Assembly (NCBI RefSeq): GCF_000284115.1
Contig: NC_017080.1
Coordinates: 2,700,001 to 2,732,000, forward strand
Direction: 5' to 3'
Length of the DNA stretch: 32,000 bases
From: Phycisphaera mikurensis NBRC 102666
GTDB taxonomy: Bacteria > Planctomycetota > Phycisphaerae > Phycisphaerales > Phycisphaeraceae
Position numbers and translations under genes: made by a program. Under the pieces are notes generated by a model. That model was not told the origin of the DNA, made no database searches, and saw nothing but the letters and a program-made list of their open reading frames with translations. Below, piece by piece: positions 4,206 to 29,284 of this stretch. Within the stretch, counting starts at the first letter, position 1; every line of letters begins with the position of its first letter.

Positions 4206-4662
4206 GCGGCGTGCCGGTCGGGCAGGCGGATGTCGGAAGGGCAGACGGGACGAGGCCCGCGGTCAGAGAGGAGATCGTCTCGGGACGCTCTCCCTCAACG
4301 GCCCGGAAGCTACCGAACCGCTGGCGGCCGGATGAGAAGCCGCGGCCGTCGCTCGGCGGCGTTGTTGAGAACGCCGCTCCCGGCTCCATGCCGGCCGCCG
4401 ATCCCGTTGAACCGCGATCTGCCGGGGTTCTTCGGCGGAGAACGTGCGGACACACGCTCCGCCGAGCGTGGAGTCCGCTGGAGAACCCGCTTCAGCACCA
4501 AGAGAGACGTCGGATTCGTAGCCCGAAATGAAGATGATTTTCGGCGCGCTATCGAGCTTTCCCCCAAACTACTCACAACGTTTGGGCAACGGCCTCCGTT
4601 GAATGACCCGCGTCAGCAGCCCAAACGACCCGCAATGCCCTACGTGTGCGTTCGCTTTGAGC

Positions 4663-4714
4663 AAAAACTGCGGGGGCCTCGATCCGGTACGCAGTCTCTG
4701 CCTGCCGCGGCAGG
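4663..4714 (-). terminator. Possible terminator region downstream of flhG (GC palindrome followed by a T5 run on the minus strand)
   Basis: A perfect 14-nt palindrome, cctgccgcggcagg (4701-4714), begins 14 nt after the flhG stop. A weak ctgcg...cgcag stem then precedes ttttt (complement of 4663-4667). A T5 run stands out in sequence this GC-rich. The geometry is not canonical. Confidence 0.25.
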
Positions 4715-4727
4715 GGAACCGGCTGCG

Positions 4728-9582: not shown

Positions 9583-9742
9583 AAGCGAAGAAGCGAAGAA
9601 GTGCGGAAGCGAAGAAGTCAGCAGGGCCTTGCGCCCGGAGACGGCGGCGGCTCCGCCACCTGATGCTTCTGCTCGTCGTCTGACTCCATCACTTCTTCAC
9701 TTCTTCGCTTCTCCGCTTCTCTGCTTCTCCGCTTCTTCGCTT
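9583..9742. repeat. Octamer-phased palindromic intercistronic element, copy A (between flhB stop and flhA start)
   Basis: Left arm 9583-9622 is 5 phased units: AAGCGAAG AAGCGAAG AAGTGCGG AAGCGAAG AAGTCAGC. Right arm 9687-9742 is 7 phased units: catcactt cttcactt cttcgctt ctccgctt ctctgctt ctccgctt cttcgctt. By my hand alignment the arms are about 33/40 complementary, with a GC-rich core of roughly 55-60 nt between them. Confidence 0.85.
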
Positions 9743-9777
9743 GCTCCACAACGTCCCTCGAACAACGACGCCTCGCC

Positions 9778-10848
9778 CTACGCCGCCCGCCCCTCGAGCC
9801 GATACACGTACGCCAACAACTCCGCCACCGCCGCGTAATGCTCCACCGGGACCTCGCCGTTCACGTCGACCTCGGCGTACAACGCCCGCGCCAGCGGCTT
9901 CCGCTCGATCAGCGGGATGCCGCTGAGCGTCGCCAGGCGGCGGATCTGCATCGCCATCACGTCCGCCCCCTTGGCCAGCACCACGGGGGCGGCCATGGTC
10001 GCGCTGTCGTACTTGAGCGCGACGGCCAGGTGCGTCGGGTTGGTGATGACCAGGTCGGCTTGGGGAACCGCCTGGGAAACCCGCTGCATCGCCAGCTGCC
10101 GGGCGATCCGCAGGCGGCGGCCGCGGATCTCCGGGTCGCCGGACATGTCCTTGCTCTCCTGCTTGACCTCCTGCTTGGTCATCTTCAGGTCGTTGCGGTG
10201 CTGGTGCTTCTGCCAGGCGTAGTCGGCGAAGCCCAGCACCATCAGCAGCACGGCGAGGATGATCGCCAGCTCGAAGATCATCCAGCCCGCCAGCGGCAGG
10301 CCGACCACCGGCTCGAGCTCCGCGAGCTTCACCAGCTGCGGCAGGTGATCCCAGATGTAGAAGTAGCCCAGCGCCCCGAGCAGGCCGAGCTTCGCCAGCG
10401 ACTGCGCCAGCCGCCCCATGGCCCGCGGGTCCACGAGCCGCTTCGCCCCGGCCAGCGGGTTGAGCTTCGAGGGCTTGGGCTGCAGCGGCTTGCCGGTGAG
10501 CAGGAAGCCCGTCTGACCGAGCGAGCCGACGAGCGAAGCCAGCACCATCACGCCGAGCACCGGCAGCATCGCGCGGCCGAGAAGGTCAATCGCCGCCGCG
10601 ACCGTCTCCCCCGCCTGGTCCACCCGCGTCGGGTTGGCCGCGGTGGCGTGGCCCAAGAACAGCTCCATCGCGTGCCGGAACGAGAGCACCAGCCGATCGC
10701 TCAGGAAGAACAGCATCAGCATCGCCACCAGCAGGCCGACCGCGGCCGAGAGGTCGGTGCTGCGGGCGACGTTGCCGTCCTCGCGAGCCTTGGCGAGCCG
10801 CTTCGCCGATGGCGCCTCGGTCTTGTCTTCCTTGGGGGTGTCGGCCAT
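9778..10848 (-). CDS. flhB: Flagellar type III export switch protein FlhB
   Basis: 356 aa, ATG start. It has MADTPKEDKTEAPSAKRLAKAREDGNVARSTDL (the canonical FlhB N-terminus), four TM segments, and the autocleavage motif NPTH in VITNPTHLAVALKY. Confidence 0.95.
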   Translation of the reverse strand: MADTPKEDKTEAPSAKRLAKAREDGNVARSTDLSAAVGLLVAMLMLFFLSDRLVLSFRHAMELFLGHATAANPTRVDQAGETVAAAIDLLGRAMLPVLGVMVLASLVGSLGQTGFLLTGKPLQPKPSKLNPLAGAKRLVDPRAMGRLAQSLAKLGLLGALGYFYIWDHLPQLVKLAELEPVVGLPLAGWMIFELAIILAVLLMVLGFADYAWQKHQHRNDLKMTKQEVKQESKDMSGDPEIRGRRLRIARQLAMQRVSQAVPQADLVITNPTHLAVALKYDSATMAAPVVLAKGADVMAMQIRRLATLSGIPLIERKPLARALYAEVDVNGEVPVEHYAAVAELLAYVYRLEGRAA

Positions 10849-11127
10849 CCGTGGCCCTCCTGATCGGTTGTCGGCGAGGTCCGCCGGCGTCCTGCCCGCG
10901 GCCGCGCATCATCGGCCGCCCGGCCGCCACCGCGCCAATCCGGCGCGGTCGTTACGGAGCGGCGACGGTCGACAGGCGGCTTCGGCGAGCGGGGACCCGC
11001 TCTTCGAGGCGTCGGCGTCGCCCGCCTTCGAGATGGTGCCCGGGGCCTCCCGATGCGTGCGGGCCCGGGCGCGAAGCAACCGGACGGCGCGTCGTGATCG
11101 GCTCCGGCAAGGCGGCGGCGCTTCCGC

Positions 11128-12063
11128 TTAGAGCCCCAGCGCCGCGGCCATCGTCGAGCCCAGGTCGGCGGGGCTCTCCGCGACCGAGCAGCCGGCGGCC
11201 CGCAGCGCGTCGAGCTTGCTCTCGGCGCCGCCCTCGCCGCCGGAGATGATCGCGCCGGCGTGGCCCATGCGGCGGCCGGGGGGGGCCGTGCGGCCGGCGA
11301 TGAAGGCGGTGACGGGCTTGGTGACGCTCTTCTTGATGAAGGCGGCGGCGGTCTCCTCGTCGGTGCCGCCGATCTCGCCGATCATCACGATGCCGTCGGT
11401 CTGCTCGTCCTCCTGGAACATGCCCAGCAGGTCGACGAAGTTGAGGCCGCGGACCGGGTCGCCGCCGATGCCGACGCAGGTGGATTGGCCGAGGCCCCGG
11501 TTGGCGGTCTGCCACACGGCCTCGTAGGTGAGGGTGCCGGAACGCGAGATGATGCCGACGGCTTTGCCCGTGGGGGCCTTTTCTGCGGGCACGTGGATGT
11601 AGCCGGGCATGATCCCGATCTTGCAGCCCGCCTCCTCCGAGCCGGGCTTCGCTCCGTCGACGCCGGGCGTGATCACGCCGGGACAGTTGGGCCCGAGCAG
11701 CGTGCAGTGGGGGAATTTCGCGGCGAGCGTGGCCTTCACCCGCATCATGTCCAGCACGGGCACGTGCTCGGTGATGCAGATGGCCAGCGTGATGCCGGCG
11801 TCGGCGGCCTCCAGGATCGCGTCGGCCGCGAACGGCGGCGGGACGAAGATCATCGACGCGGTGGCTCCGGTCTCCTCGACGGCCTTGGCGACCGTGTCGA
11901 AGACGGGCAGGCCGTTCTCGTCCTCGAGGCCGCCCTTGCCCGGGGTCACGCCGCCCACCATCTGCGTGCCGTACGCCAGGCACTTGGTGGTGTGGAACTG
12001 CCCGGCGGAACCGGTGATTCCCTGGGTGATGACACGGGTGTTTCGGTCGACGAGGATTGGCAT
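11128..12063 (-). CDS. sucD: Succinyl-CoA synthetase (ADP-forming) alpha subunit
   Basis: 311 aa, ATG start. Motifs: [45 protein letters not shown], and the phosphohistidine loop [11 protein letters not shown]. No sucC lies upstream in this window. Confidence 0.9.
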
Positions 12064-12079
12064 GGGCGGACGATACCGG

Positions 12080-12233
12080 GGGCGGGGAAGCGGAGAAGCG
12101 AAGAAGCGGGGAAGCGGGGAAGCGAAGAAGTCAGACAGGCAAGCGCGCGAGACCAGGAGCGGTCGGCGCAGCCGCCGCGCTTCTGCCTGGCTTCCTCACT
12201 TCTTCGCTTCTTCGCTTCCCCGCTTCTTCCCTT
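12080..12233. repeat. Octamer-phased palindromic intercistronic element, copy B (between nuoH stop and sucD start)
   Basis: Left arm 12088-12135: AAGCGGAG AAGCGAAG AAGCGGGG AAGCGGGG AAGCGAAG AAGTCAGA, preceded by a partial unit. Right arm 12186-12233: cctggctt cctcactt cttcgctt cttcgctt ccccgctt cttccctt. The stem continues into the core (caggcaagcgcg / cgcgcttctgcctg). It shares the 15-mer AAGCGAAGAAGTCAG with copy A (12120-12134 vs 9607-9621). Confidence 0.85.
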
Positions 12234-12256
12234 GATCCGCAGAGCGGATGCCCCGC

Positions 12257-13612
12257 TCACGCCGGGCTGAACCGACTTCCCACCAGCGGCACCTTCCGGT
12301 TCACCTCCGGCCCCGCAGGCAGCAGCGGGCTGAGGAGCAGGGCTCCGGCGACCACGGCAACGTTGGCCAGCGTGAACATCCACCAAGCCGTCAGCCCGGC
12401 CCAAACCATCACGCCGACGACCAGCAGCATCACCAGCACCAGCGGGATCATGCCGCGCCAAGCCAGCCGCATCAGCTGATCGAAGCGGAAACGCGGGAGC
12501 GTCCAGCGGACCCACATCATCACGAAGAGCACCAGCGCCACCTTGGCCATGAACACGCCCATCTTCAGGCTCACGACGAGGATCCCCTCCAGCCAGCCCT
12601 CGGCGACGCTTGGAAAGGCGTGGAGGAAGGGCAGCTCCCAGCCGCCAAAGAACATCAGCACGACGAACGCCGAGCCGGTGATCATGTGGATGTATTCGCC
12701 CAGGAAGAAGAGCGCCCACTTCATCGAGGAGTACTCGGTGTGGAAGCCGCCGACGAGCTCCTGCTCGGCCTCGGCGAGGTCGAAGGGGGCCCGGTTGCAC
12801 TCGGCGAGCACGCACACGAAGAAGATGGCCGCCAGCAGCGGGTGCATCAGCACGCCCCAGACCTCGCCGAGCCCGAACCAGCCGGCGGAGATCTGGCCCT
12901 GGACCATCGCCTCGGTGTCGGCGGTGCGGTACATCAGGATCATGATCAGCACGCAGACGCCCATGGGGATCTCGTAGCTGAGCATCTGGGCCGTCGCCCG
13001 GAGGCCGCCGAGGAAGGCGAACTTGTTGTTGCTGGAGAAACCCGCGAGCACCACCCCGTACACGGCGAGCGAGCTGACGGCGAGCAGATAGATGACGCCG
13101 ATCGAGATCGGCAGCACCGCGACGCGGGCCGCGTCGACCAGGCCGGTCACCGGGTCCACCGGCGAAGGGGCGACGAGGTCGATCCCGAAGAGGTGGATGC
13201 CCGGGAAGGCCCACATCCCGCCCCAGGGGATCACCGCCCAGCCGATCATCGCGGGGATCACCGCGAGCACGGGCGCGAGCAGGAACAGCCGCAGGTCGAC
13301 AAAGGGCGGGGTGTAATCCTCCTTCACGAAGAGCTTGAGGCCGTCGGCGAGGGCCTGGCCCAGGCCGAAGGCCTTCTTCCGGGCGAGGAAGCGGAAACCG
13401 GGGATCGAGCGGACGATCCTGCCCAGCGTCGGGTAGATCTCCAGCAGGTCGGACTGGCCGAAGGAGAAGTCGGTGCGGTTGGGGCCGATCCGGTCCTGCG
13501 CCCACGCGGCGACCTTGCGCTCCAGGAGGATGAGGTAGGCCGTCGCCCCCAGGATCACCGGGAGAAGCGACAGGGCCACGACGATCGACAGGAAGGCCTG
13601 CGCGCTGAGCAT
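12257..13612 (-). CDS. nuoH: NADH-quinone oxidoreductase (complex I) subunit H
   Basis: 451 aa, ATG start. Motifs: LLERKVAAWAQDRIGPNR, GLGQALADGLKLFVKED, FSSNNKFAFLGGLRATAQMLSYEIPMG and NRAPFDLAEAEQELVGGFHTEYS. It carries about 35 extra residues after GPNR and is longer than typical NuoH. No other nuo genes are adjacent. Confidence 0.9.
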   Translation of the reverse strand: MLSAQAFLSIVVALSLLPVILGATAYLILLERKVAAWAQDRIGPNRTDFSFGQSDLLEIYPTLGRIVRSIPGFRFLARKKAFGLGQALADGLKLFVKEDYTPPFVDLRLFLLAPVLAVIPAMIGWAVIPWGGMWAFPGIHLFGIDLVAPSPVDPVTGLVDAARVAVLPISIGVIYLLAVSSLAVYGVVLAGFSSNNKFAFLGGLRATAQMLSYEIPMGVCVLIMILMYRTADTEAMVQGQISAGWFGLGEVWGVLMHPLLAAIFFVCVLAECNRAPFDLAEAEQELVGGFHTEYSSMKWALFFLGEYIHMITGSAFVVLMFFGGWELPFLHAFPSVAEGWLEGILVVSLKMGVFMAKVALVLFVMMWVRWTLPRFRFDQLMRLAWRGMIPLVLVMLLVVGVMVWAGLTAWWMFTLANVAVVAGALLLSPLLPAGPEVNRKVPLVGSRFSPA

Positions 13613-13737
13613 CGGCGGACTCTACCGGCACCGCCCGCGGCCCGGGCTCCGGGTCCTGGAGACCGCGGGGGACGGCCGCCGGCCGGCCCCGCCGCCCCCG
13701 GCGGAGCCCGAAACGGCCGATAGGCTCGGCAACCGCC

Positions 13738-15477
13738 TTGGAAGCCGCTCCTCCCAGCCCGAAACGCGAAGAATCCGCCGCTTCGAAGCGGAAACGGCGG
13801 GAAGAGCGGCGGGCGGTGCGGCTCCACGAGCCCGCCGAGCGGTCGCTCAAGGAGACGCTGGAGTCGGTCGTCGTCGCCTTCATCCTCGCGTTCACGTTCC
13901 GCGTGTACGTGACGGAGGCCTACATCATCCCCACCGGGTCGATGGCGCCGACGCTGCTCGGGAGCCACGTGGAGGCCGATTGCCCCGCGTGCGGCTTCCG
14001 CCTGGTGGCGGACGCGGCGCCCCTGCTCGAGCACGCCGTCGACGAAGCCCGCTGCCCGATGTGCTTCCTGGAGGTGCCGCTGGCCGAAGCGCCCGGCCTG
14101 CCGCCGGCGGTCCGCGCCGGCGACCGCATCCTCGTCCAGAAGCATCTCGGCCGCTTCGAGTCGCCGCGGCGGTACGACGTGCTCGTCTTCAAGAACCCGC
14201 AAAACCCCTTCGGCGGCGGGCAGAACTTCATCAAACGCCTGACCGGGTTGCCGGGCGAGCGGCTGATGCTGCTCGACGGCAACGTCTACGTCGCCGACGA
14301 GCCGGAGGAGGCGGGCGTCCCCGACGAGCGGCTGCGCTGGCGGATCGCCCGCAAGACCGACGAGAAAGCCAATCCACGGGCCGAGGCGATCCAGCGCGCG
14401 GTGTTCCAGCCCGTGTGGCACAGCCGCCACTGGCCCGGGGACGGCGGCACGAGCGGCGGCGTCACCCGCTGGGCGTGCCCCTGGGTCCCGCGGAGCGGCC
14501 GGTGGGAACGCGCGGCGGGCCGCTTCCGGCCGCTCGCGGACCCGCCGGCGGCGAGCACGCCCGCGTTCACGCTCGGCTTCGACTTCACCCCCGTCGCCGG
14601 CCGGCCCGGCTACCTGCGGCCCGACGCGATCTACCCGTACAACCAGCTCGGCTACGGCCCCGGCGACCTCGACGTCTTCGAGGACTTCCGCGTCGCGATG
14701 ACGCTGGAGCCCGCCGAAGCCGCGGACCGCGGCGGCTTTGGCCCGTTCGAAGCGACGGTCCGCGGGACGGCCCGGCTGGCGGCGGGCGTGGCGGACGTGC
14801 GCGTCCGCTTCGCGGAAGAGCACGTCTGGCTCGAGAGCCGGCCGGCGGGAACCGACGCGGCGTGGACCCGCCTCGCGGCCGCCGGCGCGGGCGTGGGGCT
14901 CCCGCCGCTGGCCAAGCGGCCTCGCCTGGAGTTCTGGTCCGTCGATCAGGAGTTCTCCGCTTGGATCGACGGCGTCCGCGTGCTGCGGTACCGCGTCGAC
15001 GTCGGTTTCGAGGCGCTGCTCACCCGGCCGGGCCCGCCCCGGCCCGCGGAGCAGCGGCTGCGGATCGGGCTGGCCGGACCCGGAGCGACCGCCGCGGCCC
15101 TGGTCGACCTCGACCTCGACCGCGACCTCTTCCACGAGAGCGGGGCCCTGGGCGGCTTCCGCGGCGGCGTGAGCCGCGGGCTCAACGGCCTGGTGCGCCG
15201 GGACCGCGTGGAGCCGGTGCGGCTGGCGGCCGACCGCTTCTTCTTGGTGGGGGACAACAGCCCGCAGAGCGACGACAGCCGCCGCTGGTCCACCGTCGAC
15301 GCCTGGATCCGGGACCGCTACTTCCCCGGCGTGCCGGCGCGGGACGCCGCGGGCCGGGTGCCCGCGGGGCTGCTGATCGGCCGCGCCTTCGCGGTCTACT
15401 ACCCCGCCGCCAAGCCGCTCCGGCCCGGCGGCGCGGCCGTGGTGCCCGACCTCGCGGCCATGCGGTGGATCGACTGA
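13738..15477 (+). CDS. lepB: Signal peptidase I (S26 family), unusually long, with inserted CPxC...CPxC zinc-ribbon-like motif
   Basis: Box B IIPTGSMAPTLLG (Ser nucleophile), box C GDRILVQK, box D FIKRLTGLPGERL (Lys general base), and box E FLVGDNSPQSDDSRRWS. The start is uncertain: TTG at 13738 per the track, or an in-frame GTG at 13816 as an alternative. Confidence 0.85.
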   Translation: MEAAPPSPKREESAASKRKRREERRAVRLHEPAERSLKETLESVVVAFILAFTFRVYVTEAYIIPTGSMAPTLLGSHVEADCPACGFRLVADAAPLLEHAVDEARCPMCFLEVPLAEAPGLPPAVRAGDRILVQKHLGRFESPRRYDVLVFKNPQNPFGGGQNFIKRLTGLPGERLMLLDGNVYVADEPEEAGVPDERLRWRIARKTDEKANPRAEAIQRAVFQPVWHSRHWPGDGGTSGGVTRWACPWVPRSGRWERAAGRFRPLADPPAASTPAFTLGFDFTPVAGRPGYLRPDAIYPYNQLGYGPGDLDVFEDFRVAMTLEPAEAADRGGFGPFEATVRGTARLAAGVADVRVRFAEEHVWLESRPAGTDAAWTRLAAAGAGVGLPPLAKRPRLEFWSVDQEFSAWIDGVRVLRYRVDVGFEALLTRPGPPRPAEQRLRIGLAGPGATAAALVDLDLDRDLFHESGALGGFRGGVSRGLNGLVRRDRVEPVRLAADRFFLVGDNSPQSDDSRRWSTVDAWIRDRYFPGVPARDAAGRVPAGLLIGRAFAVYYPAAKPLRPGGAAVVPDLAAMRWID

Positions 15478-15825
15478 CCGGGCACCGTGGAGGAGCCGGC
15501 AGCGGGTTCTTCCACACCGCCGGGCCGGATTCGCCACCCGGGAGACTCACCCGATCCTCACGCTGCCCCCGCGGGCAGACGAGGGGACCACGAGGCGGCG
15601 TCTCCACCTCAAGCTAAGGATATACATGAGTTTACGCTCGTTTTCGCCTCGATCGGGCGCGTGGAACGTTCGAACAGCGTTCAGAAGCGGAGGGTAAGCT
15701 GGGGACTCTGGCAGCGGAGCCCTCCGGCCACGTCCCCACGTTCTGCACACTTCCGTGCAACGAGGCTCGCCGCGTCACCGCAGCAGGCGGCCGCGGCGGC
15801 GGGGCCGTCCCGGTAGGTTGCCCGC

Positions 15826-16437
15826 ATGCCCGCCAGCTCCTCCGCGTCCGCCAGCGTCCGCCGCCACGTCCTCGCCGCCCTCGTCACCAACGAGCCCGGC
15901 GTCCTGGCGCAGGTGGCCGGCATGTTCGCCGCCCGCGGCTTCAACATCGACTCGCTGGTGGTTGGCCGCACCGACAACCCCGAGCTGTCGCGGATGACGA
16001 TCGTGGTCCCCGGGGACGACGCGGTGCTCGAGCAGGTCCGCAAGCAGCTACAGAAGCTCGTTCCCGTGGTGAAGGTGGTGGACTACCACGAGGTTCCCTA
16101 CGTGGAGCGGGACCTGGTGCTGGTGACGGTGGCCACCGGCAAGCCGCGGGAGGACGGGCAGGAGGACGGCCGCGGGGCGACGGAGTACCGCGAGGAGATC
16201 GCCTCGCTGGCCACGCTCTTCCGCGCGAAGGTCGTGGACGTCGCGGCCGACCGGCTCATGATCGAGCTCGCCGGCGAGGAGAGCAAGCTGGAGAACTTCA
16301 TCGAGCTGCTCAAACCCTACGGCATCCTCGAGCTGGCCCGCACCGGCGTCATCGCCATGCCGCGGGGCATGGCGCCCAAGGCACGCGTCGCCGAGGAGAA
16401 GAAGACGGTGGACGCCGCGGACCTGCCGCCGGGCTGA
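15826..16437 (+). CDS. ilvN: Acetolactate synthase (AHAS) small regulatory subunit
   Basis: 203 aa, ATG start. ACT domain HVLAALVTNEPGVLAQVAGMFAARGFNIDSLVVGRTDNPELSRMTIVV, followed by the ALS_ss_C-type region (LMIELAGEESKLENFIELLKPYGILELARTGVIAMPRG). No large subunit is adjacent. Confidence 0.85.
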   Translation: MPASSSASASVRRHVLAALVTNEPGVLAQVAGMFAARGFNIDSLVVGRTDNPELSRMTIVVPGDDAVLEQVRKQLQKLVPVVKVVDYHEVPYVERDLVLVTVATGKPREDGQEDGRGATEYREEIASLATLFRAKVVDVAADRLMIELAGEESKLENFIELLKPYGILELARTGVIAMPRGMAPKARVAEEKKTVDAADLPPG

Positions 16438-16464
16438 GCCGCGGGCGAGCCCAACGGCGGCGTG

Positions 16465-16905
16465 TCAATCCGCCTCGAGCGCCAGGATCTTCTCCAGCCG
16501 CTTCTCGTGCCGCCCCCCGGCGAAGGGCGTCTCGAGGAAGGTGGTGACGATGCGCTCGAGCAAGCGCGGGCCCAGCAGGTCGGCGGCGAGGCAGAGGACG
16601 TTGACGTCCAGGTAGCCCCGCGCGGTCTCGGCGGCGATCTCGTCCTGCGCCTGAGCGGCCCGGATCCCGCGGAGCTTGTTCGCGGCGAGGCAGCTGCCCA
16701 TGCCGGTGCCGCAGAGCAGCACGCCCCGCTCCGCGTCCCCGCTGAGCACGCTGCGGCAGACCGCGATCGCCATGTCCGGGTAGTCGCAGACGTCGCCCCC
16801 GCAATCCGCGATGACGGCCACCGCGATGCCCCGCTGCTCGAAGAGCGGCAGCAGCTGCTGCAGCGCGTCGTGCCCGCGGTGGTCGGCGCCGATCGACACC
16901 CTCAC
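16465..16905 (-). CDS. rpiB: Ribose-5-phosphate isomerase B (RpiB/LacA/LacB family)
   Basis: Only the last 146 codons of the 384-aa track ORF look real: VRVSIGADHRGHDALQQLL...GVLLCGTGMGSCLAANKLRGIRAA...NVLCLAADLLG...TPFAGGRHEKRLEKI. The GTG start (complement of 16903-16905) overlaps the TGA stop of the upstream gene as GTGA, which suggests translational coupling. Confidence 0.85.
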   Translation of the reverse strand: MRVSIGADHRGHDALQQLLPLFEQRGIAVAVIADCGGDVCDYPDMAIAVCRSVLSGDAERGVLLCGTGMGSCLAANKLRGIRAAQAQDEIAAETARGYLDVNVLCLAADLLGPRLLERIVTTFLETPFAGGRHEKRLEKILALEAD

Positions 16906-18014
16906 GGCGCCAGCTCCGCGAGGCGCCGGCCGACGGCGGCGCGGATCTGGTCCGCGGCGCGGCGGTAGTCCTCGGCGTCCCCGCCGATCGGGTCGCTCAC
17001 GTCTGCGCCGGGATCGAGCCGGCTGGCCTTCGACGCCGCGTCGGGGAAGCGCGACACGAGCAGGTCGAGGTGGTCGGCCGTCAGCGTGTAGATCACGTCG
17101 GCATCGACCACCGCCTGCGCCGTCAGCGCGTGGCTGCGGTGATCGGCCAGCCCGCCGCCGGCGCCGGCCGCCTCCGCGACGGCCTCGGGGCTGGCGGCGT
17201 ACCCGTCGACGGCGCTGACGCCCGCGGAGGACACGGTCACGCCCCCGCCGCCATCGGCGACCGCCTGCCGGGCGAACGCTTCGGCCATGGGCGAGCGGCA
17301 GGTGTTGCCGGTGCAGACGAACAGGATGTGGAGTCGGTTGAGGCGTTCCACGATGCGCGGAGCATAAACCCCGGCCCGGAGCACGCTCGCCCGCAGGCGG
17401 CCGCGGCTCCCGTCCGCCCGCTTCGGCCGGAACAGCCGCACCGCCGTGGACCCGCGGCCGAAGCGGGCGGGGCCGCCGAGCACCACCAGGTCGGCCCCGA
17501 CCGGTGGCCGCTCCCGCGGATCGACCACCTGCCGGCCGGCCGCGTCCACGGCAGGCAGCGCCACCACCGGCCCGCCCGCCGCGGCGACCGCCCGCCGCGT
17601 GACCCGCGGTTCGGGGCACCGCACCGCCACGCGGCCGCCGCGGGCGAACACGCCCCGGGCGGCCTCATCGGGCGCCCGCGACGCCAGCGACGCCGCGTCC
17701 GCGTCGAGCGTGACCGCGTACGCCCCGGGCATCGCCCGCCGCAGGAAGCGGCCGACCGCCGGGTCGGCGGGCGCAAGCGACGCCGCCGCCGCCGCGTCGG
17801 GCACCTGCAGGGCGAGCGCCTGCCCGTCGACCAGCCCACGCTCCCGCCGCACCCGGGCCACGGCGTCGGGCCGATCGGCCCGGAGAAAGAGCCCGTAGAC
17901 GGTTTCGGTCGGCAGGACCACCGCCTCCCCGCGATCGAGCGCAGCGGCCGCGACCGCCGGAGCGTCCGAGCGGTCGGCTTCGATCTCGGCGGTTGGGGTC
18001 AGGGCGGCTTCCAC
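16902..18014 (-). CDS. Fusion protein: N-terminal YrdC/Sua5 (TsaC-like, threonylcarbamoyl-AMP synthase family) domain plus C-terminal low-molecular-weight phosphatase (YwlE-like)
   Basis: 370 aa, GTG start. The N-terminal half has the YrdC hallmark VVLPTETVYGLFLRA. The C-terminal half begins ILFVCTGNTCRSPMAEAFARQ (a C-X5-R(S) P-loop, essentially the same motif as in B. subtilis YwlE) and carries the DP-loop VSDPIGG. Confidence 0.75.
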   Translation of the reverse strand: MEAALTPTAEIEADRSDAPAVAAAALDRGEAVVLPTETVYGLFLRADRPDAVARVRRERGLVDGQALALQVPDAAAAASLAPADPAVGRFLRRAMPGAYAVTLDADAASLASRAPDEAARGVFARGGRVAVRCPEPRVTRRAVAAAGGPVVALPAVDAAGRQVVDPRERPPVGADLVVLGGPARFGRGSTAVRLFRPKRADGSRGRLRASVLRAGVYAPRIVERLNRLHILFVCTGNTCRSPMAEAFARQAVADGGGGVTVSSAGVSAVDGYAASPEAVAEAAGAGGGLADHRSHALTAQAVVDADVIYTLTADHLDLLVSRFPDAASKASRLDPGADVSDPIGGDAEDYRRAADQIRAAVGRRLAELAP

Positions 18015-18135
18015 GGAGGGCAGGCTAGGTCGCGCCCGGAAGCGCCCGCCGCCACGGCGGTTGCGGGGCGCTGGCCGACGCGCGGCCGGCTCCCGGAGCG
18101 GCAGGCCCGGGCCCCGGCCCCGTCGTCGGGCCGGG

Positions 18136-19248
18136 TCAATCCCGCAGCACGACGACGTCCGCCGGATCGACCCAGCCCGTCAGCGGTGCCGCCTCCGCGT
18201 CGACGACGAACCGGGGGTTCATCTCCAACGCGGTGAGCGTGAGCCCCCCGCCGCCCCCGTCGTCGCCGCCGGCCGTGGCCCGCACCGTGTGCTGCGCGAC
18301 CTCGCCGAGGTAGACGCCGCCGGCTCGCTTCAGGCGGAGGCGGTTCTCGCCGGGCAGACGCTTCTCCGCGTCCGAGCCCGGCTCGGCCAGGACGACGGCT
18401 TCGGGACGGATCGAGCACGTGACCGAGCCGGATGCCGGCAGCCGCTCGGGGAAGACCGCCGAGGCCAGCCGCCCCGCCGCCGTCTGCAGCAGCACGCGGC
18501 CGCCGTCGCGTCCGACCACCTCCGCCGCCACGAGGTTCGTCTCCCCGAGGAAGCCCGCGACGAAGCGGTTCTTCGGCCGCTCGTAGAGCTCACGCGGCGG
18601 GCCGACCTGCTCCAGCTTGCCGCCGTTGAGCACGGCGACGCGGTCGGCCATCGACAGCGCCTCCTTCTGGTCGTGGGTCACGTACACGCCCGTGGTGCCG
18701 GCGGCCTTGGTGATGTCGCGGATGCCCTGCCGCATCTCCAGCCGCAGCTTCGCGTCGAGGTTCGAAAGCGGCTCGTCGAGCAGCAGGACGCGCGGCTCGA
18801 TCACCAGCGCCCGGGCCAGCGCCACCCGCTGCTGCTGCCCGCCGGAGAGCTGGTTCGTTTTGCGGTCCGCCTGGTGCCCCAGCTGCACACGCTCCAGCGC
18901 CGCGTCCACGCGCTTCCGCGTCTCCGCCTTCGAGACCTTGCGGACCTCCAGCCCGAAGGCCACGTTCTGCCGCACCGTCATGTGCGGCCAGAGGGCGTAG
19001 CCCTGGAAGACCATCCCGGTGTCGCGCTTCTGCGGCGCGACGTGGGTGACGTCGTCGCCGCCGAAGAGGATGCGGCCGGCGGTGGGCTCCTGGAAGCCGG
19101 CGATCATCCGCAGCAGCGTCGTCTTCCCGCAGCCCGACGGCCCGAGCAGGAAGAAGAGGTCGCCCGCGGGGATGTCGATCGAGACATCGTCCACCGCGAC
19201 CGTCTCGCCGAACTGCTTGCGGAGGGTGTCCAGTCGGATCGGCGTCAT
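18136..19248 (-). CDS. ABC transporter ATP-binding protein (PotA/FbpC/MalK-type importer ATPase with C-terminal TOBE-like region)
   Basis: 370 aa, ATG start. Walker A LLGPSGCGKTTLLRMIAG, Q-loop MVFQGYALWPHMTV, signature LSGGQQQRVALARAL, Walker B LLLDEPLSNLD. No permease or binding-protein gene is adjacent. Confidence 0.85.
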   Translation of the reverse strand: MTPIRLDTLRKQFGETVAVDDVSIDIPAGDLFFLLGPSGCGKTTLLRMIAGFQEPTAGRILFGGDDVTHVAPQKRDTGMVFQGYALWPHMTVRQNVAFGLEVRKVSKAETRKRVDAALERVQLGHQADRKTNQLSGGQQQRVALARALVIEPRVLLLDEPLSNLDAKLRLEMRQGIRDITKAAGTTGVYVTHDQKEALSMADRVAVLNGGKLEQVGPPRELYERPKNRFVAGFLGETNLVAAEVVGRDGGRVLLQTAAGRLASAVFPERLPASGSVTCSIRPEAVVLAEPGSDAEKRLPGENRLRLKRAGGVYLGEVAQHTVRATAGGDDGGGGGLTLTALEMNPRFVVDAEAAPLTGWVDPADVVVLRD

Positions 19249-19406
19249 GACGAGAACCTTAAAGGACCACGCGCGAGCGCAGCGCTTGTGGGCGACGGGC
19301 CGCGCGCACCGCCGCCCGAGCCGCAGCCACCGGCTCGGCTCCGGCCGCCTCCGGGTGGCTCCCCCGCGTCGTGATCGGGGGGCCGAGGCGGGAGCGGCGC
19401 GGGCGG

Positions 19407-20636
19407 TCAGTGGATGAACTTCTTGCTCTTCTTCCCGGTCAGGTAGCTCTCCACCACCGTCGAGGCGAGGTCCTCGCTGGTGCAGTAAAAGGCCGTCCCG
19501 CGCGTGAGCCTGGTCAGCTTCTCGATGAAGCCGACCCAGTCCATGCCCCAGTAGTCCTCCATCAACGCGAAGCTCGCGATGCGGATGCCGCGCTGCTGGC
19601 AGCGGAGCGCCTCCCGCAGCGTCAGCTCCGAAGACTCGTCGCTCGGCGGGTAGACGAGGTAGAGCATGTCCTCGCGGGTCGCCGGATGGGTGGTGACGTG
19701 CGCCGTCGGCTGGCCGTCGGTCACGATGAAGATCTGCTTGTTGGCCGCCCCGCTCCGCGAGAGGATCTGCCGGGCCTGCCGAAGCCCCAGCTGCAGGTTC
19801 GTGAAGTGCAGCGGGATCTTCTCCTGGTTCGCGTACGCCTGCTCCAGCGGGATCCGCAGGCGGACCTGGCTGTCGCGGATGCTCACCGGCTTGGGCATGA
19901 CCAGCGGCAGGTCCCGCTCGTGCAGCGTCTCCGCCAGCGAGGAGAAGCCGACGAACTGGAGGGTGTCCAGCGGGAAGCGGCCGCGGATCAGCTCGCTCAT
20001 GCCCAGCGCGACCCGCTTCGCCTGCAGGAAGCGGCCGTAGCGCATCATCGAGCCCGAGAGGTCGATCAGCATGACCGTGGCGCAGTCCGCCGAGCCCTCG
20101 GTGTTGTGGAGCTGGAAGTCCTCGGGCGTGATGCCGATCGGCAGGCGGAGCCCGCGGGGAACCTCCACCCCCGCCTCCCGGGCCTCCTCCACCGCACGGT
20201 GCACCTGCCGCCGGGCGGCGTTCTGCAGCGAGCCGGGCAGGTCCAGCTCGCCGATCGGATCGCCGAACCGGTACGGCCGGGTCCCGTCGCTGCGCTCGCT
20301 GGTGCGGCCCGGCTCGCGGGTGCTGTGGCCTTCCTTGGCGCCCTGCTTCATCTCGGCGAACACCTCGAGCAGCGCCCGGTGCTGGAGCCCCCGGAGCAGC
20401 CGCGGCGACATCTTCAGGCGCCGGTTGCCGTCTTCATCGGTGCTCTCCTCCAGCAGGCCGGCGTCGATGAGCTGCTGGATGAACGCCTGCTCCTCCTCGT
20501 CCTCGAGGTTCGCCATCGCGTCCATCGCCTGCTCGCCGTACTGCAGGATGAAGTTCATGAGGTTCGGCGGGGCGAACAGCTCGTCGGGGGAGAGGAAGCC
20601 CTGATCGCCAGAAAACTCGGAGTAATCGAACCTCAT
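19407..20636 (-). CDS. von Willebrand factor A domain protein (CoxE-like VWA)
   Basis: MIDAS motif VMLIDLSGSMM, later IFIVTDGQPTAH. The N-terminus MRFDYSEFSGDQ resembles the M-x-Y-S-x-W-D-G-x-Q starts of CoxE-type VWA proteins. I prefer the ATG at the complement of 20634-20636 over the track's GTG at 20666. Confidence 0.7.
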   Translation of the reverse strand: MRFDYSEFSGDQGFLSPDELFAPPNLMNFILQYGEQAMDAMANLEDEEEQAFIQQLIDAGLLEESTDEDGNRRLKMSPRLLRGLQHRALLEVFAEMKQGAKEGHSTREPGRTSERSDGTRPYRFGDPIGELDLPGSLQNAARRQVHRAVEEAREAGVEVPRGLRLPIGITPEDFQLHNTEGSADCATVMLIDLSGSMMRYGRFLQAKRVALGMSELIRGRFPLDTLQFVGFSSLAETLHERDLPLVMPKPVSIRDSQVRLRIPLEQAYANQEKIPLHFTNLQLGLRQARQILSRSGAANKQIFIVTDGQPTAHVTTHPATREDMLYLVYPPSDESSELTLREALRCQQRGIRIASFALMEDYWGMDWVGFIEKLTRLTRGTAFYCTSEDLASTVVESYLTGKKSKKFIH

Positions 20637-20871
20637 GAGCGACGTTAGCGCCGCGGTGAGGCGCACCGGGAGGGGCTCCGCACCCAGCGAAGGGCCTGCG
20701 ACGCGACGCCGCCGCGTGCGGCGGCGGGCCCGCCCGTGCCGCGGACCGCGGGCCCATCGGCGTGATCGCGCGGACGGTCCGCGGCGAACCCGGGGAGGCT
20801 CGGCGGGGTTGGTCGATCGGCTTCAGGCGTTTAGGCTCGGTCAGATTCCCCACTCGTACGCCGGCTCCTCC

Positions 20872-21753
20872 ATGCACCACCGCCCGCTCGCCCGCCGGAC
20901 GGCCCTCGGATTCACGCTCGTGGAGCTGCTGGTCGTCATCGCCGTGATCGCCCTGCTCGTCGGGATCCTCCTGCCGGTGCTCGGCGCCGCCCGGACGGCG
21001 GCGAAGACGGCGGCCTGCATGGCCAACATGCGGTCGCTCGGGCAGGCGACCGTCGCCTACACGCAGGACCACGCGCTGACGTACCCGCAGCCGTTCCAGG
21101 AGGGCCAGCTCGGCGCCGCCGGCGGTCTTTCCGCGGACCGGGTCAGGGGCCGGGCCCTCTGGTACAACGCGCTGGACCGCTACCTCGGGCAGGTCGTGAA
21201 GGATTATTCCTCGGCCGATCCGGCCGCCCGGAACCACGACGCGTACAAGCAGGACCCGGTCTGGTTCGAGCTGCCGGCGGCGGTGAAGTCCGGAGCGACC
21301 ACGGTGCTCCTGCAGCCCGAGGAGGTCCGCACGATCAAGATGAACCAGTACTTCGGCGAGATCGGTGGCTCCGCCACCGCGGCGGGGGCGGTGAACTTCG
21401 TGCGGATGACGCGGGTGCCCGAGCCCGCGCGGACCGTGCTCTACGGCGACGGGCGGGCCCACGACACCCCCTCCACCACCTCCGGGAACGTCGACACCGG
21501 CGGATCCGGCCGCTTCGACTTCAACCCCGCGACGATCGGCCTCCGCCACGGCGGAGGCGCCAACCTGGCCTTCGCCGACGGCGGCGCGGCGTACCAGGAG
21601 AACCCGGTCCGCGTCACCGCCACGGGCTACCGCGGCTGGTTCGACCCTTACGCCAGCGGCGTCACCCCCGGGCAGTACCCCGACGCGATCTTCCGGTTCG
21701 AGCCCGATCGCACCGGCCAGGACCGCATCCGCGCCCGCGGCGGCAACCGCTGA
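20872..21753 (+). CDS. Prepilin-type N-terminal cleavage/methylation domain protein, DUF1559 (H-X9-DG) family
   Basis: Start taken at the in-frame ATG 20872 (MHHRPLARRTALG|FTLVELLVVIAVIALLVGILLP), a class III signal with the G|FTLVE cleavage site. The C-terminal RHGGGANLAFADGG fits H-X9-DG exactly. The upstream 79 codons of the track ORF are Arg-rich and probably not coding. Confidence 0.85.
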   Translation: MHHRPLARRTALGFTLVELLVVIAVIALLVGILLPVLGAARTAAKTAACMANMRSLGQATVAYTQDHALTYPQPFQEGQLGAAGGLSADRVRGRALWYNALDRYLGQVVKDYSSADPAARNHDAYKQDPVWFELPAAVKSGATTVLLQPEEVRTIKMNQYFGEIGGSATAAGAVNFVRMTRVPEPARTVLYGDGRAHDTPSTTSGNVDTGGSGRFDFNPATIGLRHGGGANLAFADGGAAYQENPVRVTATGYRGWFDPYASGVTPGQYPDAIFRFEPDRTGQDRIRARGGNR

Positions 21754-21762
21754 TCCGGGGGC

Positions 21763-22983
21763 TCAACGCCCCGCCGCTTCGACCGCGTCGCAGAACGCGG
21801 CGCACATCCGCTCGCGGGTGAAGCGCTCCGCCTCGCGAGCGGCGGCGGCCGACTTCTCCGCGAGCTCGGCGCGGCCCGCGGGCGTCAGGAGCCGGCGGAA
21901 CAGCGCCTCGGCCGCGTCCGCGTCGTCGTGGGCCACCGTCCAGCCCGCCCCGGCATCTGCGATCTCGGCGACGTGGCTGTCGGCGGGGGCCATCGCCAGC
22001 AACGGGCGGTGGACCTTCAGCACGCCGTACACCTTGCAGGGGTGGACGATCCCGCTCATGGCGCCGCCCATCGCGACGAGGTGGACGTCGGCGGCGGACA
22101 GCGAGTAGCGGATCTTCTCCAGCGGCTGGTAGGGCAGCGTCACGACGCTGGCCAGCCCCCGTTCCGCGGCCCGGTCGCGGATCTTCTGCCAGCCTCCGCC
22201 GGCCCCGATGAAGACGAAGCGGAGGCCGTCGGCGTCCCGCACCCGCTCGGCCGCCTCGAGCACCGCGTCGATGGGATGGGCATCGGAGATGTTGCCCGAG
22301 TACATGACGACCGTCTTCCCGTCGAGCCCGTGCTCCGCCCGGAAGGGGTTCTCCGCGTGCGGCACCGGGTCGAGGTGGGCGTCCATCGGCCACGGCGGCT
22401 GCACGTGCAGGCGCTCCTGCAGCGCCGCGTCGGGCACCTTCGCGGCGAGCCGCTCCGCCATGAAACGGTCGAGCGTGCAGACGCGGGCGGCGTGCTTCAG
22501 CGTGGCGCGGATCATCGACTCGAAGAGCCACGCCGGGGTGGAGTCCGCGGCGCACTTGCCCATCGCGACCATCTGATCGGGGTTGATGTCCATCGCCCAG
22601 AACACGTACGGCGTGCGGCGGCACGCACGCAGCGCGAGCGCGGCCAGCGGGGCCATCGGCGGCGACGTCGACACCAGCGTCACGTCGAAGCGCCGGCCGC
22701 CGAGCACCCGCAGCGCCGCCTGCGCCGTGAACGAGCAGCCGCCGAGCAGCCGCACCGCCATCGAGCCCTTGCCGAAGGAAGAGAAGCCCAGCCGGCGCAC
22801 CCGCACCCCGTCCAGCGTCTCCCGCTTGGGGTAGGTCTGCGAAGAGTCTTCGTAGGACTTCGACGCCGCCACCGCGACGACGTCGTGCCCCCGCCTCGCC
22901 AGCTCCACCGCGGCGTCGTGCATGTACTGCCCGACGGCGGGCGCGTCGGGGACGTACGTCTGGGAGAGGATCAAGATTCGCAT
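21763..22983 (-). CDS. Glycosyltransferase family 4 (WcaI/WbuB-like)
   Basis: 406 aa, ATG start. MRILILSQTYVPDAPAVGQYMHDAAVELARRGHDVVAV is a typical GT4 N-terminus. The C-terminal GT-B half reads VMYSGNISDAHPIDAVLEAA...FVFIGAGGG...ADVHLVAM. Confidence 0.75.
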   Translation of the reverse strand: MRILILSQTYVPDAPAVGQYMHDAAVELARRGHDVVAVAASKSYEDSSQTYPKRETLDGVRVRRLGFSSFGKGSMAVRLLGGCSFTAQAALRVLGGRRFDVTLVSTSPPMAPLAALALRACRRTPYVFWAMDINPDQMVAMGKCAADSTPAWLFESMIRATLKHAARVCTLDRFMAERLAAKVPDAALQERLHVQPPWPMDAHLDPVPHAENPFRAEHGLDGKTVVMYSGNISDAHPIDAVLEAAERVRDADGLRFVFIGAGGGWQKIRDRAAERGLASVVTLPYQPLEKIRYSLSAADVHLVAMGGAMSGIVHPCKVYGVLKVHRPLLAMAPADSHVAEIADAGAGWTVAHDDADAAEALFRRLLTPAGRAELAEKSAAAAREAERFTRERMCAAFCDAVEAAGR

Positions 22984-23025
22984 GAGAACGTCGCACCGGC
23001 TCGATCGACCGTGGCCGCGTCAGGT

Positions 23026-23390
23026 GGTGAAGGGGGAGCGAGGACAAGCCAGCAAGCAACCCGATCCGCAAGAGCCGCGGGCACCCGCCGCGGAGGCATC
23101 CCCCTCACCTCCCCGCTGCTTCACTTCCTCGCTCCCCCACTTCTTCGCTTCCTCGCATCTTCGCTTCTTCAATCCTTCGCTTCTTCGCTTCCTCACTTCC
23201 TCGCTTCTTCACTTCTTCGCTTCTTCGCTTCTTCGCTTCCCCGCTTCTTCGCTTCCCCGCTTCCCCGCTTCCTCACTTCTTCGCTTCCTCACTTCCTCGC
23301 TTCTTCACTTCTTCGCTTCTTCGCTTCCCCGCTTCCCCGCTTCCTCACTTCTTCGCTTCCTCACTTCTTCGCTTCCCCGCTTCCCCACTC
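23026..23390. repeat. Octamer-phased palindromic element, copy C: short purine arm, about 81-nt core, and a hyper-expanded 34-unit pyrimidine arm
   Basis: 23119-23390 parses into 34 consecutive 8-nt units (consensus CYYCRCTT; dominant variant CTTCGCTT) without a single indel. The block starting at 23191 recurs at 23287, a 96-nt (12-unit) offset. The short arm GGGGGAGCGAGGA (23032-23044) is perfectly complementary to 23126-23138. Confidence 0.95.
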
Positions 23391-25483: not shown

Positions 25484-25533
25484 ATCCGCGGACCGCGACC
25501 CGGATCGTGCGAGAACCCCCGCGGTCCGCGGAT
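25484..25533. promoter_or_regulatory. Perfect 14-bp inverted repeat (atccgcggaccgcg N22 cgcggtccgcggat) abutting the oxidoreductase start codon
   Basis: 25484-25497 is the exact reverse complement of 25520-25533. The proximal arm ends 6 nt from the ATG at 25477 on the minus strand. The repeat itself is certain; its function (operator, RNA stem masking the translation start, or processing site) is not. Confidence 0.4.
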
Positions 25534-25753: not shown

Positions 25754-28457
<2,704 letters not shown>

Positions 28458-29131: not shown

Positions 29132-29284
29132 GCGCTCGGCCGCGAGGACGATCTCTCGCAACCGGCCGCGCGCAGGTCCCGCGGACGGCAGACGATTTCG
29201 TCGTCGAGCGTGGGCGGTCCGCGGCCGGAGGCGGTCTCTCCCCCCGGGGCGGTGCCGTCGGCCGGCGCCGTGCGGCTGCGGCGC

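Follow-up and report, generated by a model that had tools for sequence, protein, structure and literature searches.

A probable dispersed family of intergenic palindromes with arms of tandem 8-nt units in Phycisphaera

This study analyzed a 32,000-nucleotide (nt) stretch of the Phycisphaera mikurensis genome (hereafter, the window), which corresponds to positions 10227-42226 of contig JACHEL010000017.1 (GCA_014207395.1) and has a GC content of 73%, and it concerns palindromic elements whose arms consist of tandem 8-nt units. Such elements were identified in the flhB-flhA spacer (copy A) and the nuoH-like-sucD spacer (copy B), together with a one-sided relative at lpxD-GT4 (copy C) and a fourth copy outside the window (copy D). 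These elements very probably constitute a genuine dispersed, genus-level Phycisphaera family of intergenic palindromic repeats with slippage-driven arms. The best overall explanation, which we consider slightly better than an even bet, combines such a family with a role as intercistronic RNA hairpins. In model bacteria, both the expression of operons and the plasticity of the genome are shaped by dispersed palindromic repeats; to our knowledge, essentially no such repeats have been characterized in the Planctomycetota, including the Phycisphaerae.

Palindromic copies and their 8-nt units

A first-pass annotation of the window had described phased 8-nt units, AAGYGRRG in one sense and CYYCRCTT in the other, at three places, and both motif enrichment and Tandem Repeats Finder (TRF) bore this out. 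The two-unit pattern CYYCRCTTCYYCRCTT, searched with at most one mismatch, gave 50 matches versus 0.05 expected from shuffles, all within the three regions, and TRF detected a period of 8 at 9583-9617, 9692-9742, 12082-12130, 12190-12233, and 23124-23384. The consensus of 62 purine-sense units, read in the sense of the minus-strand mRNA, was A-A-G-Y-G-R-R-G. Positions 1, 2, 3, 5, and 8 of the unit were essentially invariant, and positions 4, 6, and 7 varied almost solely by transitions. The commonest unit, AAGCGAAG (18 of the 62), contains no G-tract; G-tracts were confined to AAGCGGGG units (10 of the 62), and the unit variants were site specific.

Copy A (9583-9742, minus strand) starts 35 nt past the flhB stop codon and ends 23 nt ahead of the flhA ATG. 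In mRNA sense, its 5' arm (9687-9742) comprises seven purine units (AAGCGAAG AAGCGGAG AAGCAGAG AAGCGGAG AAGCGAAG AAGTGAAG AAGTGATG), which are followed by an inner stem (GAGTCAG ... CTGAC) with a GC-rich core (9615-9686) carrying the small apical hairpin GGCGG-AGCC-GCCGCC, and by a 3' arm (9583-9614) of four pyrimidine units (CTTCGCTT CCGCACTT CTTCGCTT CTTCGCTT). The inverted repeat has 39-nt arms with 85% complementarity, and the predicted fold of the minus-strand RNA reached -89.9 kcal/mol (z -4.87), with none of 200 dinucleotide shuffles folding as well.

Copy B (12082-12233, minus strand) lies 23 nt past the stop codon of the nuoH-like gene and about 18-24 nt ahead of the sucD ATG. Its 5' purine arm (12186-12233) has six units, its core includes the module GCGGCGGCTGCGCCGACCGC (12159-12178), and the 3' half of the inner stem (CTGAC) occupies 12082-12134 together with a 3' pyrimidine arm of five to six units. 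The inverted repeat has 49-nt arms with 84% complementarity, and the predicted minus-strand fold was stronger still (-117 kcal/mol, z -8.02; 0 of 200 dinucleotide shuffles as good). The 15-mer reported earlier as common to copies A and B was recovered and is part of a 17-mer, GGAAGCGAAGAAGTCAG (CTGACTTCTTCGCTTCC in mRNA sense, located within 12082-12134 in copy B), and GCTTCTGC was found in both cores, as had been noted. Copies A and B are genuine palindromes that are predicted to fold into single long hairpins.

Short-read contigs break within the arms, with Logan contigs terminating in those of copies B and D, and the region is evidently hard to assemble. It is nevertheless hardly credible that the arrays are chance low-complexity sequence or an assembly artefact, which the first-pass annotation had itself named as a way for its claim to fail. 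The motif excess given above speaks against chance; the entire copy A spacer is base-for-base identical in an independent Logan assembly (run SRR12223476, contig L058), which excludes an artefact there; an LpxD of 356 amino acids (aa) with an array-encoded tail is called in both National Center for Biotechnology Information (NCBI) assemblies; and three further genomes or metagenomes carry homologous elements. Chance and artefact are refuted for copies A and B.

The contiguous P. mikurensis sequence covered, assembled through look-ups of window proteins, was 50,187 nt. Copy D (L059 14585-14783) lies outside the window, some 2.4 kb beyond its left edge, where a ketoacyl-synthase gene and tatA flank it. 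It is composed of 13 purine units, a core, and roughly four degenerate pyrimidine units, and its fold z was -2.95. On the right side, the 8.6 kb adjoining the window yielded no further copy, and the P. mikurensis density is four copies in 50 kb, or about one per 12 kb.

Loci of relatives were obtained through FlhB orthologues. In L303 and L304 (~79% FlhB identity), the flhB-flhA spacer holds a palindrome whose inner-stem edges, GAAGCCAGGCAG ... CTGCTGACT, match those of P. mikurensis and whose arms consist of another 8-mer, GGGAAAGA/TCTTTCCC (fold z -6.08). A second ~79% lineage (L309 and L310) has three copies in 21 kb of L309, situated upstream of fliN, at fliP-fliQ, and at flhB-flhA; their outer units are AAGCGGGG, their mid-arm units are of the AAGAGAGA type, and their inner stem and outer ends are those of P. 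mikurensis. The flhB-flhA copy is orthologous in P. mikurensis, L303/L304, and L309/L310, each with different units. At unrelated loci of L309, two copies contain the exact core module of copy B, each in a different orientation relative to the arms, which indicates that cores can flip, as expected between inverted repeats. These homologous copies, together with copy D, uphold the earlier claim that the elements form a family, whose known members now number eight, spread over six different gene junctions of P. mikurensis and the two ~79% relatives.

The family members are 150-200 nt long and, in gene sense, consist of an outer end, a 5' purine arm, an inner stem, a GC-rich core, the inner stem again, a 3' pyrimidine arm, and an outer end. 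The outer boundaries are conserved between unrelated loci (gRGC/AAGCG ... CGCTT/GCYC, with the slash marking the boundary), and so is the inner stem across copies (AGYCAG(R)CAG ... CTG(Y)CTGAC); the 50 kb contain just three occurrences of CTGACTT, at the equivalent place in copies A, B, and D. The core is made of small hairpins and can stand in either orientation, and 20-24 nt of it are shared in some copies. The stems measure 40-60 bp, and all palindromic copies gave fold z values between -3 and -8.

The elements occupy most of their spacers. In copies A, B, and D, the 5' arm begins 19-35 nt past the stop codon (15-63 nt family-wide), and in the P. mikurensis copies the 3' arm ends about 18-38 nt ahead of the downstream start; most copies lie about 15-70 nt from the flanking stop and start codons, the exception being copy C, which overlaps the end of lpxD. 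The genes on either side are co-directional for all eight copies (six junctions), and the purine arm is 5' in each; of the window's spacers, neither the three divergent nor the two convergent ones hold a family copy. Strongly asymmetric palindromes elsewhere, namely those between the sigma-factor and LEA_2 genes of L304, at fliQ-fliR of L306, and in L014, likewise have the purine arm 5'. The single orientation described earlier was thus found at 6 of 6 junctions, but it is not creditable to transcription: the sampled copies within each genome are all on one DNA strand and GC skew tracks the gene strand, so transcription and replication are indistinguishable as its cause.

Copy C and the turnover of the arms

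Copy C (23103-23390, minus strand) is a one-sided purine-sense array of about 33-36 units without a long hairpin. TRF identified a period of 8 (32.6 copies) and a period of 72 (3.6 copies), the latter being a nine-unit higher-order repeat. The fold of the region was no better than that of shuffles (z +1.57), and the putative plus-strand purine arm (23026-23060) gave just 14-24-nt matches at 71-86%. A GC-rich core and a degenerate 3' arm remnant, CTTGTCCTCGCTCCCCCTTCACC, occupy 23026-23102 on the minus strand and end ~42 nt ahead of the GT4 ATG (22983). Copy C is a family member whose 5' arm was expanded by nine-unit block duplications and whose 3' arm has decayed.

The first-pass annotation had credited the three gaps with one architecture, taken all of them as non-coding, and proposed a hairpin of about 150 nt or more for every copy. 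Shared architecture and hairpin hold for copies A and B, but fail for the one-sided array of copy C. The lpxD-GT4 gap is not wholly non-coding either, because array C supplies the end of lpxD and its stop codon: 46 nt of the array (23345-23390) are inside the lpxD open reading frame (ORF), where they encode the last ~15 codons and the TGA stop. In the resulting LpxD, the Pfam LpxD/hexapeptide match stops at residue 311. Unit slippage upstream of the stop would alter this tail. The exclusion of a coding periodicity, argued earlier from the 8-nt period, held in what could be tested. In the translated region, each purine-sense frame of array C reaches a TGA in about 10-45 codons.

The way in which the arms change was revealed by the flhB-flhA spacers of L309 and L310, which come from different metagenomes and are identical save that the 3' arm shows a single clean gap of 8 nt; the arms therefore change by whole 8-nt units. 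We infer that the process behind this gain and loss is replication slippage. An alignment of seven family copies yielded, in RNAalifold, a 38-pair consensus stem in which 14 pairs exhibited, in one sequence or more, a two-sided change that kept the pair, compared with 8.9 in shuffles. Paired cells amounted to 90.0% (83.5% in shuffles) and the covariation score was 0.305 (0.176 in shuffles); for each of the three measures, none of 500 shuffles reached the observed value. When the partner was slid by 1-3 columns, pairing fell to 50-56%. Within each copy, complementarity between the arms is preserved through turnover of the unit sequence.

Template switching within quasi-palindromes can correct one arm from the other, and the complementarity of the arms probably arises either from selection or from such templated correction. 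The family is readable as an evolving structure, with conserved ends, inner stem, and core, mid-arms that change in 8-nt steps, and complementarity that persists through unit turnover. It is an unusually clear record of concerted arm evolution, a natural system for weighing selection against templated correction in the upkeep of long hairpins, and one that could show whether stem length tunes the expression of adjacent genes.

A possible intercistronic role and the neutral alternative

The first-pass annotation had listed four possible roles and preferred none of them. We tentatively propose that the elements act at the RNA level as intercistronic hairpins. They are probably transcribed in polycistronic mRNAs, because several of the junctions are typical operon-internal ones (flhB-flhA and fliP-fliQ, with sister elements at motA-motB and fliQ-fliR). 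Once transcribed, each element would fold into a 40-60-bp hairpin between the upstream stop and the downstream start. This hairpin might block 3' exonucleases, serve as a substrate of a double-strand-specific RNase, or both, and the stability or expression of adjacent cistrons would thereby be uncoupled, as by the repetitive extragenic palindromic (REP) sequences and bacterial interspersed mosaic elements (BIMEs) of Escherichia coli. REP/BIME hairpins stabilize upstream cistrons, and long perfect double-stranded RNA is an RNase III substrate. By analogy, the Phycisphaera elements most plausibly work like REP/BIME. More speculatively, transcribing the purine arm first would avoid exposing a long unpaired C/U-rich tract of the kind that loads Rho.

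Several observations weigh against this proposal. Transcription through the elements is read from gene arrangement only, and their uniform orientation may reflect the replication strand instead of transcription. Mutational mechanisms alone can keep arms complementary in the absence of selection. Selection on the sense RNA should favor G·U over A·C, but the non-Watson-Crick cells of the alignment comprised 16 G·U and 13 A·C, with no asymmetry, and the sense-minus-antisense energies were mixed (-9.9 for copy A, -2.2 for B, -25.6 for D, and +8.2 kcal/mol for L304); RNA-level function is thus not specifically supported by the sequence. Copy C persists despite having lost its hairpin. The flhB-flhA spacer of L307 is only 6 nt long and that of L308 holds an extra gene, which indicates that the element is dispensable at this junction; such empty junctions were seen in distant genomes only. 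Finally, the hairpins have no following U-tract save a UUUU at copy A, copies B and D lacking one, and no terminator-like site was called at the elements by a scan, by which an intrinsic terminator was rejected.

The main rival is that the elements are functionless, neutral or selfish DNA, in which a hairpin or repeat grows in a tolerant spacer through replication stalling and slippage and template switching matches the arms. This is somewhat unlikely, although much of the evidence already presented is compatible with it: the one-unit indel between the near-identical L309 and L310, the 72-nt block duplications and the persistence of copy C, the inversion of cores between arms, the absence of a G·U over A·C asymmetry (as expected of a strand-symmetric DNA process), and the emptiness of flhB-flhA in L307 and its other occupant in L308. 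Units are lineage and site specific and turn over completely between relatives. A polarity test pointed the same way. We examined 38 (GAAGNNNN)n arrays from mixed high-GC taxa by using a simple gene caller based on third-codon-position GC (GC3) that was validated on the window, and 35 of the 38 were intergenic. A universal polarity rule, with purine arrays after stops and pyrimidine arrays before starts, was rejected, as the bias was only weak (14:7 after stops and 13:8 before starts). Against a purely neutral origin stand the exact 20-24-nt core, inner stem, and outer ends at non-orthologous loci and in species with 79% FlhB identity, which would be hard to obtain from local growth, as well as the uniform orientation at all six junctions and the recurrent occupation of flhB-flhA by unrelated units, in four of six lineages.

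A broader form of the intercistronic-hairpin proposal, which we regard as rather unlikely, is that tandem-repeat-armed palindromes are a general, unrecognized class of tunable intercistronic RNA elements in the Phycisphaerae, with selection repeatedly placing or keeping long hairpins at particular operon junctions. Whole-unit slippage together with arm-to-arm correction would then provide a heritable, stepwise "rheostat" of stem length, which, if real, would govern the relative stability or processing of the mRNA, or re-initiation, from one cistron to the next in a phylum whose genes are scattered and whose Shine-Dalgarno use is weak. In a variant of this idea, the family may have been spread by a strand-specific copying mechanism that is so far unknown.

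Irrespective of function, the elements break short-read assemblies, can yield spurious ORFs and array-encoded protein tails such as that of LpxD, and would serve well as strain-typing markers. Even if functionless, they would still be a useful repeat-family annotation in a type-strain genome.

Known repeat classes, wider distribution, and neighboring repeats

The first-pass annotation had not recognized the element as any described one. The exclusion of REP/BIME held, but the kind has precedents, in Xanthomonas (PMC4692102) and in Geobacter metallireducens (PMC2700814). The closest in kind are the Xanthomonas GGGAATC heptamer repeats, which occur singly or as inverted pairs. According to Rehm et al. 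(2015; PMC4692102), 89-93% of these heptamers are intergenic, mostly between same-direction genes, and each genome has 70-75 convergent inverted array pairs capable of forming stem-loops. The arrays are described there as lying near the upstream ORF and sometimes overlapping it, as transcribed and of unknown function, and as about equally frequent on both strands relative to genes; array positions and single or paired type are conserved between species, and length and sequence vary. The type is also marked by many copies per genome (of the order of 100-200).

The Phycisphaera elements resemble the Xanthomonas type in several respects. Their arms consist of head-to-tail short units (period 8 at all arms), inverted pairs (A, B, and D) and a single array (C) both occur, and they are intergenic and near the upstream ORF end, with the overlap of copy C into lpxD as a parallel. 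The flhB-flhA position is also kept among relatives while units and unit number vary. They differ in having an 8-nt unit instead of a 7-nt one, in their strong purine/pyrimidine asymmetry, in units that mostly have no G-tracts (the G-quadruplex idea, tied to the G-tract units of the GGGAATC/GGGGATT families, fails for the commonest unit), and, compared with the Xanthomonas arrays as described by Rehm et al., in an inner stem, a core module, and outer ends that are common to different loci.

REP, BIME, and REPIN sequences are dispersed extragenic palindromes, often intra-operon and often in inverted pairs, with proposed roles in mRNA stabilization and termination (Di Nocera et al. 2013, PMC3733652; Bertels and Rainey 2011, PMC3116915). 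Each is a stem-loop of 20-40 nt that carries an unpaired tag, GTAG or CGTC, and is linked to a REP-associated tyrosine transposase (RAYT) (PMC3733652; PMC3116915). A REP/REPIN assignment of the Phycisphaera elements was rejected on stem length (40-60 bp) and on ends that have neither tag. The genes called in some 50 kb of P. mikurensis included no RAYT (Y1 transposase).

The elements also share features with MITEs (miniature inverted-repeat transposable elements) such as Correia, RUP, ERIC/IRU, and NEMIS, which are 100-250-nt dispersed non-coding sequences with inverted ends that form a hairpin when transcribed and can affect neighbors. A MITE is bounded by terminal inverted repeats of fixed length and by target-site duplications and has a cognate insertion sequence; none of these features was found for the Phycisphaera elements in the small sample of fetched loci, and arms of variable tandem-unit number are atypical of them.

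A non-autonomous, MITE- or REP/REPIN-like mobile element, copied by a transposase encoded elsewhere, is the next rival after functionless DNA and is decidedly unlikely. For such a transposase, the repeated 8-mers might offer several binding sites, or the folded single strand might be the substrate, and a Y1/HUH-type mechanism would explain the strand-specific orientation. Elements that move through single-stranded DNA (IS200/IS605, REP/RAYT) show strand-uniform orientation. The occurrence, at unrelated loci of two species, of discrete copies whose inverted outer ends and inner stems are conserved, their high local density (about one per 7-12 kb), and their uniform placement on one DNA strand all agree with mobility. 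However, no consistent direct repeat was present at the boundaries of the eight copies, and no transposase-like Pfam family was found among the called genes of the 50 kb and the small sample of relatives' fetched loci, so that the earlier failure to find target-site duplications or a nearby transposase still stands. A REP tag is missing, no copy was found in viral contigs or plasmids, and the flhB-flhA copy, orthologous in three Phycisphaera-level genomes, is old and not recently mobile.

Another precedent is provided by the class 1 sites of G. metallireducens, which carry GTTGCTYN four times per strand on opposite strands at a variable distance, with 48 intergenic sequences per genome (PMC2700814). 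Their authors read these octanucleotide sites as binding sites of a global regulator, and some are tied to ISGme8/9 (PMC2700814). The Phycisphaera elements similarly present tandem 8-nt units as an opposite-strand intergenic pair, but their unit sequence is unrelated, and the Geobacter sites have about four units each, with neither arm growth nor a core module described.

This precedent bears on the idea that the elements act on the DNA level or through protein binding, either as iterated sites for a DNA- or RNA-binding protein or as non-B DNA (a cruciform, or a triplex at the mirror repeat GAAGCGAAG). Copy C could, in one version, be an unstructured purine RNA with GGA/Shine-Dalgarno-like motifs that titrates a CsrA-like protein or ribosomes. 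The invariance of five of eight unit positions over the 62 units would suit a binding site, as would the GAAG that recurs unchanged every 8 nt in arrays from other taxa whose variable halves differ, and copy C holds 19 GGA motifs in 288 nt and is predicted to stay unpaired. Such a role is nonetheless very unlikely. Relatives keep the architecture with other units (GGGAAAGA and AAGAGAGA, and 7-9-nt units further out), so that no single recognition sequence is conserved; the commonest unit contains no GGA; one pyrimidine per 8 nt interrupts the triplex-forming tract; and a candidate binding protein was not identified.

The TAACTGA arrays of Beggiatoaceae, cyanobacteria, and Bacteroidetes are abundant intergenic tandem repeats of 7-nt units that are oriented relative to genes (MacGregor 2015, PMC4679880). 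They undergo whole-unit insertions and deletions between strains, break assemblies, and may overlap ORF ends and supply stop codons; they are direct repeats (with one inverted case in 170), usually of 2-6 units, predicted to be unstructured and located at start codons (PMC4679880). The Phycisphaera elements share the whole-unit indels, the ORF-end overlap, and, in copy C, the array-supplied stop, but their arms are inverted and hairpin forming. Mazel and colleagues are said to have described, in 1990, the cyanobacterial STRR heptamers as oriented heptamer arrays.

A CRISPR array was also rejected, as before: the 8-mers are contiguous and have no unique spacers, and no cas domains occur in the neighboring genes. 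No sigma-70-like promoter was called within the elements. Rfam returned no match in the window at gathering thresholds, and a permissive search returned only generic hairpin matches to eukaryotic microRNA precursors (22-39 bits against cut-offs of 60-140). A full-text literature search retrieved no description of the family in papers on P. mikurensis or Planctomycetes. The family extends a known kind, intergenic short-tandem-repeat palindromes, into the Phycisphaerae, where it has apparently not been described.

Palindromes with unrelated 7-9-nt units were also present in more distant Phycisphaerae, with fold z values of -4.1 to -6.3 (the (AGGGGGT)n palindrome of L304 left out). Algisphaera has a GGATTTC/GAAATCC palindrome at flhB-flhA and GATTTCA-type units at motA-motB. 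The metagenome-assembled genome (MAG) L306 has GAAGTCC at flhB-flhA, the 9-nt unit TGATTTTCK at fliQ-fliR, and ACGCCAAG between convergent genes, and L308 has a GCTTGAG palindrome at flgE-flbD. The L304 palindrome between the sigma-factor and LEA_2 genes is built from AGGGGGT, which, like GGGAAAGA, is a unit with a G-tract. In the Planctomycetota MAG L014, a full palindrome built from AAGCGAAG (2595-2735) folded with a z of -7.49. The extra gene between flhB and flhA of L308 (11119-11490) encodes 123 aa with 23S_rRNA_IVP/bAvd-like domains in a 5.5-Mb genome; bAvd is an accessory protein of diversity-generating retroelements.

Judging from the contigs retrieved, (GAAGNNNN)n arrays appear to be widespread beyond Phycisphaera. 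The Phycisphaeraceae MAGs L001, L011, L038, L054 (CAZHFW01), L039, and L037 carry single arrays, purely (AAGCGAAG)n and 4-8 units in length, immediately past stop codons, with no partner arm. Unrelated metagenome contigs with a GC content of 54-70% contain intergenic arrays of 8-nt period in which GAAG is constant and the variable half differs (AAGTCAGG, AAGCCAAG, and AAGCTAAG), located at L068 11820-11915, L094 4949-5012, L109 12753-12784, L111 7057-7080, L136 2498-2521, L162 39-78, and L171 7023-7074. Several of them adjoin a start codon, and GATGGGAT-type units additionally form a palindrome in L171.

A contig scan with a 24-nt three-unit pattern returned mostly unrelated low-complexity matches from many phyla. 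Among the matches listed for a 17-nt junction motif in metagenome and viral scans, arrays were present at eight loci, all of them metagenomic and none of the Phycisphaera family. The array-encoded peptide, used as a query for other array loci, gave three weak matches, and blastn of copy B found no plasmid counterpart. A phage origin of the core module was rejected, as the single viral match was a chance one, in a coding region and without arms.

The flanking genes, all on the minus strand, were confirmed by Pfam under the names given earlier: flhA (7289-9559), flhB (9778-10848), sucD (11128-12063), the nuoH-like gene (12257-13612), a GT4 glycosyltransferase gene (21763-22983), and lpxD (23345-24415). 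The FlhB product is 100% identical to P. mikurensis FlhB of JACHEL010000017.1. The nuoH-like gene (451 aa, NADHdh domain) is solitary and lies directly upstream of sucD, with neither other nuo genes nor sucC nearby. In P. mikurensis flhB follows sucD, and in Algisphaera, L306, L307, and L308 it follows fliR; the P. mikurensis gene order near the flagellar export genes has been rearranged. The spacer between flhG and a 121-aa hypothetical gene (4185-4727) is unusually long (543 nt), has a lower GC content (66%), and contains no family copy.

The window also contains a second, unrelated palindrome family with invariant CCGCGGACCG ... CGGTCCGCGG termini, a fixed 26-nt spacing, and an unconserved center, which was represented by 16 half-sites (2.5 expected). 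Its six full pairs are located at 2766-2811, 14720-14765, 20739-20784, 25486-25531, 27198-27243, and 29179-29224, five of them in spacers and one (14720-14765) within an S26 peptidase gene; single half-sites are at 11447, 21131, 25664, and 30826. Similar motifs occur in the relatives L304 and L309. The fixed spacing and variable center suggest a candidate protein-binding site or REP-like element.

Algisphaera agarilytica (L305) has a REP-like family of its own, TTAGCCCCGGGC...GCCCGGGGCTAA, as inverted pairs in three flagellar-region spacers: flgE-flbD (3739-3830), fliP-fliQ (8657-8726), and argS-DUF1802 (20112-20203). In L309, the fliA-LEA_2 spacer (17890-18462) contains a near-perfect inverted repeat with arms of about 45 nt, GTGCCAAGGAGCTTCAGCTCCTTG...GGTCGCCGCAGGCGAC, around about 330 nt, which looks MITE-like. 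Its small hairpin GTCGCCGCAGGCGAC is also present in the core of the L304 flhB-flhA element.

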